From positions 1-10,321 of the forward strand of contig JBDRIG010000019.1 of the NCBI GenBank assembly GCA_043816185.1: 10,321 bases of DNA, given 5' to 3'. The translations under genes and the position numbers were made by a program. Below the pieces are notes generated by a model. The model was not told the origin of the DNA. It searched no databases and saw only the letters and a list, made by a program, of their open reading frames with translations. This DNA is from Elusimicrobiota bacterium. GTDB lineage: Bacteria; Elusimicrobiota; UBA8919. This document shows, piece by piece, positions 4,587 through 10,088 of the stretch; position 1 is the stretch's first letter; each line of letters begins with the position of its first letter.

Positions 4587-5099
4587 ATGAATCTTAAAAA
4601 ACTAATTCGTGATGTACCAGACTTTCCAAAACCAGGAATAATTTTTAAAGATATAACACCACTTCTTAAAAATCATAAGGGTTATAAACTGGCAATAAAT
4701 CAGATGGCAAAAAAATATAGAAATGAGCATATAGATAAAATTGTTTCAATGGAATCTCGTGGATTCATTTTCGGTGCACCTGTTGCGTTAAAACTTGGAG
4801 TCGGATTTGTACCGATAAGAAAAAAAGGGAAACTTCCATATAAAACTATCAAAGAAGAATATCAGCTTGAATACGGAACAGATATTTTGGAAATTCACGA
4901 AGATGCCATTGCCAAAGGAGAAAATGTTCTAATTGTTGATGATGTTCTTGCTACGGGTGGAACCGCAAAAGCGGTTTGTTCTTTAATTAAAAAATTAGGG
5001 GGAAGAGTTATTGGGTTTTGCTTTTTAATAGAATTATCATTTTTGAATCCACGGGAAAAATTAAAGAACCACGAAATTTTTTCACTGATAAAATACTGA
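4587..5099 (+). CDS. apt: Adenine phosphoribosyltransferase
   Basis: PDFPKPGIIFKDIT, ESRGFIFG, RKKGKLP, YQLEYG and the PRPP motif VLIVDDVLATGGT. Confidence 0.97.
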   Translation: MNLKKLIRDVPDFPKPGIIFKDITPLLKNHKGYKLAINQMAKKYRNEHIDKIVSMESRGFIFGAPVALKLGVGFVPIRKKGKLPYKTIKEEYQLEYGTDILEIHEDAIAKGENVLIVDDVLATGGTAKAVCSLIKKLGGRVIGFCFLIELSFLNPREKLKNHEIFSLIKY

Positions 5100-5190: not shown

Positions 5191-5197
5191 CTCCATC

Positions 5198-5271
5198 GCC
5201 CCTGTAGCTCAGCTGGATAGAGCATCGGTTTCCTAAACCGGTTGTCGGCAGTTCAAATCTGCCCAGGGGTA
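5198..5271 (+). tRNA. tRNA-Arg (anticodon CCT), no encoded CCA, G1-U72 terminal pair
   Basis: Acceptor GCCCCTG/CAGGGGT, D arm GCTC/GAGC, anticodon arm TCGGT-TTCCTAA-ACCGG, T arm GGCAG-TTCAAAT-CTGCC, discriminator A. Confidence 0.95.
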
Positions 5272-5375
5272 GTAACTGATGACTAAACCATTGACAAATA
5301 TGTGATATCCATTTCTTCTAAGCGAATGTCATTATTGCTGTAGTAACTGATGACTAAACCATTGACAAATATGTG
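5269..5375. repeat. Exact 36-bp direct repeat pair separated by a 35-bp unique spacer (CRISPR-like single unit)
   Basis: GTAGTAACTGATGACTAAACCATTGACAAATATGTG at 5269-5304 and 5340-5375; spacer 5305-5339 ATATCCATTTCTTCTAAGCGAATGTCATTATTGCT. The repeat is certain; a CRISPR function is not. Confidence 0.95.
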
Positions 5376-5390
5376 TAAATATGGTATGAC
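5362..5390 (+). promoter_or_regulatory. Sigma-70 promoter for tnpA-tnpB (probably leaderless transcript)
   Basis: TTGACA (5362-5367), 17-bp spacer ending in TGG, TATGAC (5385-5390); ATG at 5397 with no Shine-Dalgarno. Confidence 0.6.
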
Positions 5391-5396
5391 ATCGCC

Positions 5397-5713
5397 ATGA
5401 AATTAAGTCAATGGGCTAAAGAGGCTGTCCGACAACATAGTCCGCTTTACCGACGACACAGCGTCAGTAAAAAAATGATATGTTGTTTGTTGCCATTAGT
5501 TGCCAAATACTGCTATATTTTACAAAAAAATGACTGTTTTACGATTTGTCGGACAGCATCGGTGGAGATATATTCGTGATAGACACAAACGAAATAAAAG
5601 ATGATTTAGTTCAGGACATGCTGGATGTTTTAACTTCTTTTTGTGCAAGACTGTATGAAAGGAGGAGCGCGAAGAATAAAGCCAAAAAAGCGATAGAAGC
5701 GATAAAAGGATGA
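5397..5713 (+). pseudogene. tnpA: IS607 TnpA serine recombinase remnant with an internal deletion occupied by a MITE
   Basis: N-terminal MKLSQWAK (5397-5420) and C-terminal GGDIFVIDTNEIKDDLVQDMLDVLTSFCARLYERRSAKNKAKKAIEAIKG* (5561-5713) are typical of IS607 TnpA. Most of the HTH and the catalytic YxRVS region are missing. Confidence 0.88.
5421..5560. mobile_element. 140-bp MITE inside tnpA
   Basis: TIRs GAGGCTGTCCGACAA (5421-5435) and TTGTCGGACAGCATC (5546-5560), 14/15 complementary; boundaries coincide with the tnpA breakpoints. Confidence 0.8.
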
Positions 5714-6921
5714 TTCGTCAAGCTTACAAATACGAACTAAAACCGAATAATTTACAGAAAATGCTTCTGGTTAAGCATGCGGGGTGTGCGCGTTTTGCAT
5801 ATAACTGGGGGCTTGCTCGGAGGATAGAGGAATATAAAAAGACAGGGAAATCCTCTAACGCAATTGAACAACACAGGCAGCTAAACGTTTTGAAGGGAGC
5901 AGAGTTTTCCTGGATGTATGAGGTTTCCAAATGTGCTCCGTAGGAAGCATTAAGGAATTTAGAGTGTGCTTATCGGAACTTCTTTCGTAGAGTAAAAAAT
6001 GGGGAAAATCCCGGATTCCCGAAATTCAAGAAAAAAGGCATTCACGACAGTTTTACTTTAACGACGGGGGTAATTAGGATAGATGATACTGCTCATATTG
6101 TCCTTCCGAAAATCGGGAAAATTAGAACGAAGGAAGACACATCTAAATTCAAAGGAAGGATTATTTCGGCCACAGCAAGTCGTCAGGCGGATAGGTGGTA
6201 TGTGTCGTTTCAAGTGGAGCGGGAAAGAATAGTCCCAAACTTAAACCATCAAGGCATCACGGGTTTTGACTGTAATATCGGCGAAATTGTGGATTCAGAG
6301 AACAATCGTTATATTCTTCCCCGTCCTCTTAAAAAACTTCTATCCCTTTTACAAAGAAGATCAAATCGGCATTCAAGAAAACAAAAAAGGTCGATGAACA
6401 GGAAGAAGTCAGTGCTGGTTCTATCCAGATTGCACAGAAAGATTAAGAATATCAGGCGGGACTTTTTCCATAAATTATCCACAGACATTGCGAAAACCAA
6501 GCAGGTGATCTGTGTGGAGAGTTTATCAATTCAGAAGATGTTGCAGAATCGGTTTCTTGCACGTAGTATTATGGACGCGGGATGGAGAGAGTTTTTGACC
6601 ATGCTTGAATACAAAGTAACATGGTATGGTTCTATTTTCCTTGAAACTCCAAAATACTTCCCGTCTACTAAAAAGTGCTCTGTTTGTGGCGTGGTGAAAC
6701 CCAAAATGAATTTGTCTGAAAGGATTTTCATATGCGATGCTTGTGGGCATATGATGGACATAGACTTAAATGCGGCTATAAATATCAGAAATTACGCTTA
6801 TAGTGTAATTCCGAGTACCGGGAGTTTCCCGGGAATCAACGCTTGTGGAGAGGTGGCACAATTATGCCCCTCGTTGAAGCAAGAAGAAAGCACATTGGTT
6901 ATGGGAGACTGTAATAAATGA
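5710..6921 (+). pseudogene. tnpB: RNA-guided endonuclease TnpB with one in-frame TAG at 5941-5943
   Basis: One frame of 403 codons before the terminal stop: AYKYELKPN, HAGCARFAYNWGL, SKCAP*EALRNL, GFPKFKKK, RuvC-I GFDCNI, RuvC-II ICVESL, Zn finger CSVC/CDAC, RuvC-III DIDLNAAINI. Confidence 0.92.
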
Positions 6922-6954
6922 TAAGATTTTTGGAACGGCAATTCATCCCCACGA
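6814..6954 (+). ncRNA. Putative omegaRNA (reRNA) scaffold plus guide
   Basis: AGTACCGGGAGTTTCCCGGGAATCAACGCTTGTGGAGA...CTCGTTGAAGCAAGAA is the pattern seen at tnpB 3' ends, running to the right end (6938). The guide is inferred as the next ~16 nt (CAATTCATCCCCACGA). The 5' boundary is approximate. Confidence 0.7.
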
Positions 6955-6991
6955 CCAAAGTTGGGGGTTTTCTTGCCAAGAGGTCTTTAAT
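6937..6991. repeat. IS200/IS605-end-like hairpin; left arm of a 30-bp inverted repeat
   Basis: GGCAATTCATCCCCACGACCAAAGTTGGGGGTTTTCTTGCC forms an imperfect hairpin; 6962-6991 matches the reverse complement of 10059-10088 at 27/30. Confidence 0.65.
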
Positions 6992-7042
6992 CAAACCCTG
7001 CGACGACAAAAATATAAAAAAATCTGGAAATAAAAAAAGTAC

Positions 7043-7080
7043 TTGACAAAAATCAAAACTTTAATGTATAATATACATTA
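7043..7080 (+). promoter_or_regulatory. Promoter with palindromic operator for TA operon 1
   Basis: TTGACA (7043), 18 bp, TATAAT (7067); perfect palindrome TAATGTATA-A-TATACATTA (7062-7080) over the -10; AGGAGGTGA Shine-Dalgarno follows. Confidence 0.8.
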
Positions 7081-7096
7081 TAGGAGGTGAAAACAA

Positions 7097-7342
7097 ATGC
7101 AGAGAACACAAATTTATTTATCAGAAAAAGAGAGAAATATTCTTTCTTCTTTAAGTATAAGTAATAGCAAAAGCATTAGTGAACTCATTCGTGAAGCAAT
7201 TGATTATTTTTATTTTAATAGGAAAAAAATAGATTTTGCACAAACACTATGCTATGTAAAAGGTATTTGGAAGGATAGAAACGATATAGAGAGTGCAGAA
7301 AATTATGTACGAAAATTACGGGTTGACCGGAGATCTAAATGA
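7097..7342 (+). CDS. Ribbon-helix-helix (CopG-like) antitoxin, VapB type
   Basis: MQRTQIYL...SISELIREAID RHH pattern; ATGA overlap with the PIN toxin gene. Confidence 0.85.
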   Translation: MQRTQIYLSEKERNILSSLSISNSKSISELIREAIDYFYFNRKKIDFAQTLCYVKGIWKDRNDIESAENYVRKLRVDRRSK

Positions 7343-7719
7343 CTAAATTTCTTATTGACACCGACGTGCTAATTGAAATACTGCGAGGAAATATAAAAAT
7401 ACTTTCTTGTTTTGATACATTAAACAAAAAAGGGGCAACATTTTTCTATTCTCCGGTTACAAAGGCCGAAATTTTTCATGGAATCCGAGAAAAAGAAGAA
7501 CCAAAAATAAATTTATTATTTCAATCTATGGAATGTATTTTTATAAATGATGAAATAGGAAGAAAAGCTGGGCTTTATTTAAAAGAATTTCATCGTAGTC
7601 ACAATGTACAATTAGGTGATAGTTTAATTGCGGCTTCTGCATATTTTGCGGATACTATTCTTTTTACTCTCAACCGGAAACATTATCCTATGAAAGATAT
7701 CAAGGTTTTCGCTGATTAA
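7339..7719 (+). CDS. vapC: VapC-family PIN-domain toxin
   Basis: FLIDTDVLIE, TKAEI, GDSLIAASA and TLNRKHY PIN motifs; 126 aa. Confidence 0.92.
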   Translation: MTKFLIDTDVLIEILRGNIKILSCFDTLNKKGATFFYSPVTKAEIFHGIREKEEPKINLLFQSMECIFINDEIGRKAGLYLKEFHRSHNVQLGDSLIAASAYFADTILFTLNRKHYPMKDIKVFAD

Positions 7720-7912
7720 AGTTTTGACGCTACTAAAAAATGCTCTTTGTCATAACAGGATTGTCGTGTGATGAGTGGCGTCTTAACATAAAAGAAAAAT
7801 ATAATTATTAGTGTTCCTGAAGAAAGGATTAAAACAAAAAGAAAGGGAAGGGTTCCACCGACGGGGAAAAACCGTCCCCATTTCTACCTCAAAATAATAA
7901 TTTAAAAAATAC

Positions 7913-7941
7913 TTGACAAAATTGTTAAAATGTATTAGAAT
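7913..7941 (+). promoter_or_regulatory. Promoter for TA operon 2
   Basis: TTGACA (7913), 17 bp, TAGAAT (7936); GGAGGTGA Shine-Dalgarno before ATG 7977. Confidence 0.75.
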
Positions 7942-7976
7942 AATAATGAACACAAAAGAATATTGGAGGTGAATCT

Positions 7977-8219
7977 ATGTCTAAAACGGTAACAATCCGG
8001 CTATCAGAGGAAGAATATAAAAAGATTTCGTTGTCTGCACAGTCTGAATATCGTCCTATTTCTAATTTTATTACTAATACAGTATTAAAAGAAATAGAAG
8101 AATCACTTTATACAGATGTGGTTGAGATAGATCAAATTAGAGGTAATAAAAAATTACTGGAAAAACTAAAATTAGGACACAACGATGCTAAAAAAATGAG
8201 AGGTAATTTTATTGGATAA
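7977..8219 (+). CDS. RHH-type antitoxin
   Basis: MSKTVTIRLSEEEY...PISNFI RHH pattern; overlaps the RelE-like gene. Confidence 0.8.
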   Translation: MSKTVTIRLSEEEYKKISLSAQSEYRPISNFITNTVLKEIEESLYTDVVEIDQIRGNKKLLEKLKLGHNDAKKMRGNFIG

Positions 8220-8496
8220 TTTTAAAATATTTGAAACGAAACAGTTTTTATCTGACCTGGAAAAAGATTTTAGTGGTCAACAGGAACGGATAAAGAAAAA
8301 ACTTATAACATATGTTTATCCACAATTACGGTATCAACCGTACTTTGGAAAAAATATAAAGAAGTTAACTAATTATGAACCCGAAACCTGGCGGTATAGA
8401 ATTGGGGATTATCGTTTTTTTTATGAAATTAATGAGCAGAAAAAAATAGTTTTTATGATAACAGCAGATATCCGCGGGAGTGCCTATAATATATGA
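8212..8496 (+). CDS. RelE/ParE-family toxin (TTG start)
   Basis: 94 aa with NIKKL...TWRYRIGDYRFFYEI...R C-terminal RelE pattern. Confidence 0.88.
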   Translation: MDNFKIFETKQFLSDLEKDFSGQQERIKKKLITYVYPQLRYQPYFGKNIKKLTNYEPETWRYRIGDYRFFYEINEQKKIVFMITADIRGSAYNI

Positions 8497-8562
8497 GCAG
8501 TTACCAAAATTAAAATTACAAAAATTAGCCGTGGATAATACCATATCAAAACATTAGGCACA

Positions 8563-8685
8563 GTGGGAACAACAGGCACAGGAGGAACAACAACAGGCCA
8601 TCCCCAAAAAAAAGTAAAAGAAATACGCATTTGTCCTTATTGCAAAAGTCCTTATTGGGATAGGCCCAGGGGAAAAAAGCGTTAA
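8563..8685 (+). pseudogene. Remnant of a small Zn-ribbon protein
   Basis: Frame ends GHPQKKVKEIRICPYCKSPYWDRPRGKKR*. Only the second CxxC pair survives; upstream is low-complexity G/T-coding sequence and a stop at 8536. Confidence 0.55.
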
Positions 8686-8732
8686 GTACGAACGACAAAA
8701 AACAATAAAGTAATTAAAATAGGAGAACAAAA

Positions 8733-9278
8733 ATGATAAATAAAAAACTGATAGAAATTGAAAACAAAATCATTGAAGTAAGATAACAAAAAGCGATTCT
8801 TGATAGTGATGTTGCAGAACTTTACGGCGTTGAAACAAAAGACATTAATAAAGCAGTTAAAAATAATCCCGACAAGTTTTTGGAAGGATATATTTTGGAG
8901 TTGTCTAAAGCAAAGAAAGATGAACCGGTGGAAAATTTCCACCGGTTCCGAAATCTAAAACATTCAAGCATAAATCCTAAGGCCTTTACTGAAAAAGGTC
9001 TTTATATGCTTGCCATGATATTGAAGAGTACCAAAGCCACCCAAACTACAATATACATTATTGAAACTTTTGCAAGAATTAGGGATCTTTCGCAAAACAT
9101 CAAAGCATTAACAGTGGTACAAGACGAACAACAAAAACAAAATTTACTTCAAAAGAGTGGCAAAATCATCGGCGAACTTCTTGATGATAATCTGACAACG
9201 AGTGAAAAAGAGATAACAATAGAACTAAATCTTGCTTTATTGAAAATCAAACACACTATCAAAAAAATAAAGAAATGA
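8733..9278 (+). pseudogene. ORF6N-domain DNA-binding protein with an in-frame TAA at 8784-8786
   Basis: AGGAG Shine-Dalgarno, ATG 8733: MINKKLIEIENKIIEVR*QKAILDSDVAELYGVETKDINKAVKNNPDKF...PKAFTEKGLYMLAMILKS. Same frame as the listed 8880-9278 ORF. Confidence 0.88.
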
Positions 9279-9395
9279 GAACAACCGCAATTTATGTCAG
9301 AGTTTCTACAATAGGTCAAGAGTTAAAAAATCAAATAAGGGATTTAACCGCCTATTCTCTTAAAAATAAATAGGAAATTTATAACACTTACGAGT
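9275..9395 (+). pseudogene. Truncated serine recombinase (resolvase) N-terminus
   Basis: ATGA-coupled to ORF6N: MRTTAIYVRVSTIGQELKNQIRDLTAYSLKNK*EIYNTYE, containing the catalytic YxRVST motif; TAG at 9371; similarity lost shortly after. Confidence 0.82.
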
Positions 9396-9489
9396 TACCC
9401 AAACCGGAAATGGAATGAGGGCGTTAACTACTTAAGAATCTCCATGGCGATATTTTAATAGTTTTATCGTCGAGGCTTGGGTTTTGTAA

Positions 9490-9518
9490 TTGACAAAATT
9501 ATTAAATTGTGTTATACT
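9490..9518 (+). promoter_or_regulatory. Promoter for TA operon 3
   Basis: TTGACA (9490), 17 bp, TATACT (9513); AAGGAGG Shine-Dalgarno before ATG 9539. Confidence 0.78.
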
Positions 9519-9538
9519 ATGTTTAACAAGGAGGCGAT

Positions 9539-9769
9539 ATGGAAACAAAGATTAAACTTATAGGGGTCAAAATGCCTTTAAAACTTGCTTCTGCACTTGA
9601 GCATATTGCGACGGAGCAATACAAATCAGTTTCAACATTTATCAGAGAAATGATAGTAGATTACATTGAGGATGAACTCAGTGTAGGATCATGGAAATTA
9701 ATTGAAAAAGGGCGGAAAGAATACAGGGAAGGAAAATGCATTCCATGGAGAGAAGTAATTCATGAATAA
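9539..9769 (+). CDS. RHH-type antitoxin
   Basis: LIGVKMPLKL...SVSTFIREMI RHH pattern; C-terminal GRKEYREGKCIPWREV typical of RelB-like antitoxins. Confidence 0.82.
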   Translation: METKIKLIGVKMPLKLASALEHIATEQYKSVSTFIREMIVDYIEDELSVGSWKLIEKGRKEYREGKCIPWREVIHE

Positions 9770-10034
9770 ATTCACGGTTCTTTTGTCATCACAGGCAAAG
9801 AAGTATTACAAAAAGGTTAACAAAAAGACACAGGATTTATTGAGAGATTGTTTTCTGTATCTTGAAGAAAATCCTTTTTATCACCCGGGTGGAATAATAA
9901 AAAGAATTAGAGGACAGAGTTTATACAGATTTCGGGCAGGTGATTTAAGAATTATTTACGAAATAAATGAATTAAAAAGGGAAATTCCGATCCATTTAAT
10001 TGGGCCAAGAGGGGATATTTACAAAAAAATATAA
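9762..10034 (+). CDS. RelE-family toxin
   Basis: LSSQAKKYYKK...IKRIRG...YRFRAGDLRIIYEI...IGPRGDIYK. Confidence 0.9.
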   Translation: MNKFTVLLSSQAKKYYKKVNKKTQDLLRDCFLYLEENPFYHPGGIIKRIRGQSLYRFRAGDLRIIYEINELKREIPIHLIGPRGDIYKKI

Positions 10035-10058
10035 ATATTATTGTGGAACAAAAATTAA

Positions 10059-10088
10059 ATTACAGACCTCTGGGCAAGAAAGCCCCCA
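10059..10088. repeat. Right arm of the 30-bp inverted repeat bracketing the TA cluster
   Basis: ATTACAGACCTCTGGGCAAGAAAGCCCCCA; its reverse complement is 27/30 identical to 6962-6991. Confidence 0.75.

Follow-up and report, generated by a model that had tools for sequence, protein, structure and literature searches.

The 10,321-nt contig JBDRIG010000019.1 of an uncultured Elusimicrobiota bacterium (assembly GCA_043816185.1), hereafter called the window, carries a decayed IS607 element next to a tRNA-Arg(CCT) gene. The left end of this element contains a unit (positions 5269-5375) in which two identical 36-bp copies flank a single 35-bp sequence. The unit is the product of a 35-bp insertion with a 36-bp duplication, placed 36 bp in from the tip of the IS607 element, and it post-dates the landing of that element at the tRNA gene. 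Our preferred explanation, to which we give a probability of about 45%, is that the unit is the scar of off-target integration by an integrase of the CRISPR type. More tentatively, we suggest that such an integrase, with rulers of 36 nt for the stagger and 35-36 nt for the insert and not encoded in the genome today, seeded at least three proto-CRISPR units at unrelated sites. The genome analysed is a metagenome-assembled genome (MAG) of 1.44 Mb in 112 contigs (94% complete). It was compared with 11 genomes of the family and, in DNA searches, with 400 to 401 genomes of the phylum; a sister genome of the same genus, G001, contributed 1.51 Mb to the repeat-pair scan and the insert search.

A repeat search of the window returned the two copies (5269-5304 and 5340-5375, plus strand) as 100% identical, with starts 71 nt apart. 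In the whole assembly, the 36-mer was found at just these two sites and the 35-mer between them (5305-5339, plus strand) once, with next matches of at most 14 nt. These searches confirmed a preliminary description of this DNA, made from its letters alone, in which two identical 36-bp copies surround a unique 35-bp sequence. That description had allowed for an ambiguity of 1 nt at the boundary, but there is none. The bases beside the copies differ on both sides (g at 5268 against t at 5339, and a at 5305 against t at 5376), so the repeat length is exactly 36 nt. A tandem duplication was considered and rejected because the identity spans only 36 of the 71 nt and the 35 nt on the 3' side of copy 2 are unlike the insert.

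The arrangement of the two copies was interpreted by comparison with two related IS607 copies in G001, each at a contig end and each with one left end. Both G001 left ends begin with GG followed by GTTAGCAAC and continue into TTGACA, 17 nt, TATAAT, 6 nt, and the ATG of tnpA; both right ends read CAGAACGG and diverge from each other just beyond ...ACGG. In the window, copy 1 is the IS607 left tip and meets the tRNA in a G run, as in the two left junctions of G001, whereas copy 2 is preceded by GCT and, in an alignment made by eye with G001, runs on into the tnpA promoter and start. Because the left ends of G001 are single and their G-run junction is found at copy 1, not at copy 2, we conclude that insertion and duplication took place within one end. 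Two of two related elements thus have one left end, which supports the event that had been proposed, namely insertion of a fragment of about 35 bp with a 36-bp target duplication. The descriptions of copy 1 as keeping the native tRNA-side context and of copy 2 as keeping the native downstream layout also held. A -35 hexamer (TTGACA, 5362-5367), a 17-nt spacing, a -10 region and, 6 nt further on, the ATG (5397) follow as in G001, but the -10 hexamer is TATGAC (5385-5390, plus strand) in place of TATAAT, and a consensus scan did not flag these promoter-like hexamers.

The borders of the element agree with this interpretation. According to the available text of PMC6188088, GG is where IS607 elements insert, and their insertion duplicates no target sequence. 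In the window, the left tip adjoins the tRNA's GGGG, and the right end (6803-6938, plus strand; 84% identity to the two G001 right ends) closes in ...GGAACGG with its GG at 6937-6938, as expected for IS607 termini. With the ends placed at the G run and at ...GGAACGG, both copies and the insert lie inside one IS607 element. The tRNA-Arg(CCT) gene (5198-5271, plus strand; predicted by ARAGORN and by Rfam at 64.7 bits) has its last 3 nt within copy 1. Homology to the apt-tRNA loci of eight relatives ends at 5269-5272 (query positions 683-686 of 834), and public contigs with an identical tRNA part from the window after 5271-5273. The tRNA 3' sequence GGGGTA is native in six of the eight loci printed, and the remaining two read ...GCA. 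The 3' end GGGGTA of the tRNA is the insertion site of the IS607 element.

A pattern scan of genome contigs for further left ends of the element gave the two G001 contigs only, and the same kind of scan over metagenome contigs gave none. A TnpB-fragment search of metagenome contigs produced 145 pattern matches, none of which was confirmed, and DNA searches of the 11 family and 401 phylum genomes placed this IS607 in G001 only. A true IS607 transposase was found in one of 121 phylum genomes (G006), and it is unrelated to the window element at the DNA level.

Two further units of the same build occur elsewhere in the genome. A scan for non-tandem direct pairs (at least 27 of 36 positions matching, 86 periods covered) returned 22 pairs of 36 nt, four of them at periods 71-72: the window unit, the two units described next, and a pair on contig C28. 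One unit (C50:35927-36033; L059:5928-6034) is found where a histidine-kinase gene begins and has the form 36/35/36, with copies identical at 35 of 36 positions. Its copy 1 holds the start codon, and its copy 2 repeats the start codon together with 18 nt upstream. The site is single-copy in four relatives (G001, G005, G008, and G010). The other unit (C6:3254-3361; L058), flanked by gyrA and a type I restriction-modification gene, has the form 36/36/36, with 33 of 36 positions identical. Its insert is a 34/36 copy of a promoter region on another contig (C60:12769-12804; L060:4770-4805), and the likeness ends 0-2 nt from the repeat borders. We regard the C60 sequence as native to that place because the orthologous promoter of G001 keeps part of it. 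A 36-nt duplication that recurs three times around inserts of 35, 35, and 36 nt leads us to favor an enzyme with fixed rulers over repair accidents, and Cas1-Cas2 is the enzyme known to have such rulers. In a scan of the 1.51 Mb of G001, one of 41 pairs fell at periods 71-72, and it was a tandem array of repetitive extragenic palindromic (REP) elements. Two other pairs of period 71-72 were set aside, the C28 pair as a REP hairpin cluster and the C111 pair (seen under a stricter setting) as a diverged coding repeat. Copy 2 of the C50 unit adjoins a REP-like hairpin element.

Off-target spacer integration is well documented in vitro and in engineered Escherichia coli, and natural cases are few and circumstantial. 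The portions available of two reports describe how Cas1-Cas2 integrates DNA at sites other than CRISPR loci, the stagger matching the length of its repeat (PMC6698737 for full-site integration by the Pyrococcus furiosus proteins in vitro; PMC6895254 for the type II-A system of Streptococcus thermophilus), and in E. coli such events have given rise to arrays termed 'neo-CRISPR' (Nivala, Shipman and Church 2018, as cited in the part available of bioRxiv 10.1101/148544). If the unit in the window arose in the same manner, the integrase would have nicked the two strands of the IS607 left end 36 nt apart, and the 3' ends of a fragment of about 35 nt would have been joined to the nicked strands. Repair would then have filled both gaps and left 36-bp copies on either side of the insert. 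The chemistry would be that of Cas1-Cas2 acting off target, and the product would be a 'neo-CRISPR' unit. The integrase itself would since have gone, either lost together with a CRISPR-Cas locus or supplied in the first place by a mobile element.

The likeness to neo-CRISPR loci lies in a spacer-sized insert between copies of ordinary DNA that have the length of a CRISPR repeat (36 nt), in the presence of several units at unrelated sites, and in the self-derived insert of one of the three. The units here differ from those loci in that no cas1-cas2 is present and the inserts measure 35-36 nt, against 29-31 nt for spacers of the family; they were also found in a natural uncultured genome and not in an over-expression experiment.

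The lineage has had CRISPR repeats of matching length. In G001, a Cas9-like gene (1090 aa; HNH_4 and RuvC_III domains), cas1, and cas2 stand next to an array whose repeats measure 36 nt and whose spacers measure 30 nt, a locus that we would call type II-C-like since its cas2 and its array are direct neighbors. The window, too, has a type II CRISPR repeat, solo and degenerate (7721-7754, plus strand), which lies outside the unit and directly behind a PIN toxin gene. The first 22 nt of this repeat (7721-7742) are identical to the G001 36-nt repeat, after which it degenerates (blastn-short, E 1.8e-6 for the whole genome); a candidate leader remnant beyond it showed just AGGA and a weak alignment, and we do not claim one. 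The 22-nt identity shows that a CRISPR locus with a 36-nt repeat once stood 2.35 kb from the unit, which is the distance between the solo repeat and the unit today. The duplication in the unit has the same length, 36 nt, as the repeat of this type II system. The window resembles the G001 locus in its 36-nt repeat length, its solo copy of that repeat, and a similar toxin-antitoxin island; it is unlike the locus in that the G001 spacers are 30 nt long and the duplicated IS607 end has a sequence unrelated to that of the G001 repeat.

The check for a CRISPR system of the host, proposed with the preliminary description, came out positive only for the lineage: 36-nt repeats are attested by the remnant and by the G001 locus, but no cas1, cas2, cas9, or array is present in the genome. 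A Cas4-like domain was detected below threshold in a 1376-aa frame. Multi-copy loci flagged by the k-mer scan for arrays were a 97-nt tandem repeat, a 49-nt tandem repeat, and a coding repeat, none of them an array. A search of the 1.51 Mb of G001 for ectopic units of the 36/30 form found none. One G001 candidate (L204:13542-13643), with 30-nt repeats (27 of 30 positions identical) 66 nt apart, was rejected as operator-like; it lies before a gene start, and each of its repeats contains GTCAAATAA twice.

Several results weigh against integration by a CRISPR-type enzyme. The first group concerns the enzyme. Neither Cas1 nor Cas2 was found in the 94%-complete genome, the Cas9-like, Cas1, and Cas2 proteins of G001 gave no tblastn match in it, no RAMP/Cas6 protein was detected, and the k-mer scan found no CRISPR array. 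Only two of the 11 family genomes have Cas1. Arrays with spacers of about 35 bp, which the preliminary description proposed to look for, were not found: array spacers in the family measure 29-31 nt in all 29 cases (four in G001 and 25 in G004), so no integrase known in the lineage fits inserts of 35-36 nt. The type II system of the family fits the 36-nt stagger and does not fit the insert.

The second group concerns the targets. The duplicated 36 bp has no likeness to the CRISPR repeat of the lineage. Published off-target sites resemble the leader-repeat junction (PMC6895254, in the part available), and the targets here are without likeness to a leader-repeat junction or a repeat. The best alignment of the three targets for a shared motif gave six of 60 identical columns, against a shuffle mean of 4.2, and the G found at both borders of the window unit is not found in the C50 and C6 units. 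The C6 unit has no outgroup, and its repeats include a 15-nt piece of a dispersed repeat. Because the pile-up at periods 71-72 was noticed after the fact, we assign it no formal probability. Sequencing reads also lend no help: reads of four public runs map to the tRNA alone (5197-5273) with none over the unit, and the best public run contains at most 0.14 of the words sampled from the locus.

The third group concerns the source of the inserts. The window insert occurs once in its own genome, and the idea that it is a spacer with an external source found no support. It gave no match with E < 1 among phages or plasmids, no exact match among viral contigs, no match with three or fewer mismatches in 400 other phylum genomes, and no match in the 1.51 Mb of G001. 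The insert of the C50 unit is equally without a source in its own genome, in G001, and in the further searches.

The strongest alternative, which we consider less likely, is a duplication with insertion that involved no CRISPR integrase, such as filler DNA captured in a staggered break, replication template switching, or a process not yet described that adds about 71-72 nt in the form of a short DNA piece and a target duplication. Such an origin would suit a genome without cas1, an insert length that misfits the CRISPR system of the family, and three targets without a common motif, and the C6 insert was copied from its own genome, as filler DNA often is. The C28 and C111 pairs, which have shorter exact repeats at periods 71-72, would likewise suit a process with a constant sum. 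However, three repair accidents should not all yield exactly 36 nt around inserts of 35, 35, and 36 nt, and length is not exchanged between duplication and insert in the three clean units. The inserts are not significant hairpins, since 79, 33, and 17 of 200 shuffles, for the three units, fold equally well or better. Nor was the window insert templated nearby: its best matches in the window score 19-20, below the mean of 23 for random 10-kb pieces of the genome. Apart from spacer integration, no process described in bacteria is known to us to have a 36-nt stagger.

A rearrangement peculiar to IS607 is less credible, and we judge it improbable. The first 71 bp would then represent an older or second left end, nested and later reduced by deletion, or would result from the action of TnpA on its own end. 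Within the duplicated 36 bp are the -35 hexamer and, at left-end positions 12 and 24, a pair of motifs of the form WTGACW; these motifs are candidate TnpA-binding sites by comparison with the phased subterminal motifs described for the left end of IS1535 (PMC6188088, in the text available). The last 20 nt of the insert are loosely like the stretch before the ATG in G001, and the IS607 copies are found in a mobile toxin-antitoxin island. Against this, the likeness to the G001 left end is not significant, as 339 of 5000 shuffles align equally, and we rejected the insert as IS607 left-end DNA. A further candidate, an inverted likeness of the 3' end of the insert to the left tip, was dropped with a fold weaker than those of shuffled sequences. 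Copy 2 is without the GG junction of IS607 insertions, two diverged elements would not match at 36 of 36 positions and then not at all, and no tnpA remnant is found beyond the right end. Tandem duplication is excluded, this IS607 copy is the only one in the genome, and no IS607 is present at the C50 and C6 units.

An assembly artefact is very improbable. The genome is a MAG of 112 contigs and the public reads that we tried do not reach the unit, but a unique 35-nt sequence between the copies needs reads that cross both junctions, and the contig is coherent on either side. The copies in the C50 and C6 units, moreover, differ by one and three mismatches, respectively, which is unlike an artefact of k-mer overlap.

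The IS607 element that received the insertion is dead. The start of tnpA remains as about 8-10 codons (ATG at 5397, to 5420, plus strand), and its N-terminus matches the start of the G001 tnpA. The middle of the gene has been replaced by a miniature inverted-repeat transposable element (MITE) of about 140 bp (5415-5560, plus strand) with 15-nt inverted ends (5421-5435 and 5546-5560), a sequence found at 29 more places in the genome at 91-98% identity. The C-terminal 50 codons of tnpA follow (5561-5714, plus strand; identified by translation) and overlap the start of tnpB, as in IS607 elements. Neither the N-terminal nor the C-terminal remnant gave a Pfam match, and a search with the NF033518 profile found no IS607 transposase in this genome. 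The tnpB gene (5710-6921, plus strand; Pfam HTH_OrfB_IS605, OrfB_IS605, and Cas12f1-like_TNB) is interrupted by an in-frame TAG at 5941-5943. This is the single stop in an otherwise open frame of 403 codons, and the presumed RuvC catalytic residues are intact by eye.

With tnpA destroyed, tnpB interrupted, and a repeat without RNA structure, the unit is a neutral scar with no visible present function, and it is not a working array. The preliminary description had suggested that it may be a new-born array created by ectopic spacer acquisition. The part that stands is a scar with the build of a CRISPR unit, in a lineage with 36-nt repeats and with two sister units in the same genome; the part that does not is the array, as there is a single unit, an unstructured repeat, and no cas genes. 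The proposed tie to tnpB also found no support, since no link was seen, the guide RNA of TnpB is expected at the opposite end, and the element is dead. That the unit works as a nascent array, forming one transcript with the tRNA and serving TnpB or a different effector, is the least credible of the readings considered: the stretch from the tRNA to the unit shows no terminator-like site and tnpB begins 335 bp downstream of copy 2, but the stop in tnpB, the right-end position of any guide RNA, the folding of the repeat and of the whole unit no better than shuffled sequences, an Rfam search of the window that matched tRNAs only and nothing on the unit, the lack of cas genes and of a spacer target in our searches, and the presence of only two repeat copies all argue against it.

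The remaining features of the window provide context. A phosphoribosyltransferase gene (4587-5099) lies upstream of the tRNA, and three toxin-antitoxin pairs lie downstream of the IS607 element. A dispersed short repeat begins directly at the IS607 right end (6937-6991) and recurs at 10059-10088 on the minus strand; further copies, at 86-90% identity, are on contigs C95 (near another tnpB-like gene), C79, C49, and C20. In G001 (C83:8596-9350), 107 nt separate an IS607 right end from a toxin-antitoxin pair of the ParE type, which shares 85% identity with the pair at 9529-10037 of the window. Between these points (6939-10037), the window has 2.6 kb of extra DNA with the solo CRISPR repeat as well as two more toxin-antitoxin pairs and an ORF6N fragment, and the region looks like a variable toxin-antitoxin island. 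At the other side of the window, genes for an N6/N4 DNA methylase and, next, an HNH endonuclease (877-2294) precede two tRNA-Pro genes with GGG and CGG anticodons (2550-2836).

Set beside IS607 and IS1535 as described in the available text of PMC6188088, the element has the same GG termini, the same insertion at a G run, and likewise no target duplication of its own. It also has a tnpA, presumably of the serine-recombinase type (here only its ends), that overlaps tnpB, and short phased motifs in its first ~50 bp. It is unlike the family in that its first 36 bp are doubled around 35 foreign bp, an arrangement that is not described in that portion of the text and that the two closest copies, those of G001, lack.

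CRISPR arrays must have started from single units. The three scars of the same build described here, of which one sits within a TnpB element and another has a traceable, self-derived insert, offer material for asking which enzyme makes such units, how often units are fixed, and whether they persist after cas genes are lost. For annotation, they indicate that 'orphan CRISPRs' with two repeats can be true insertion scars and not software noise. If the enzyme was not Cas1-Cas2, a process with a 36-nt stagger exists that has yet to be described. If it was an integrase of the CRISPR type, the unit would be a natural snapshot of arrays arising beside TnpB-like nucleases.

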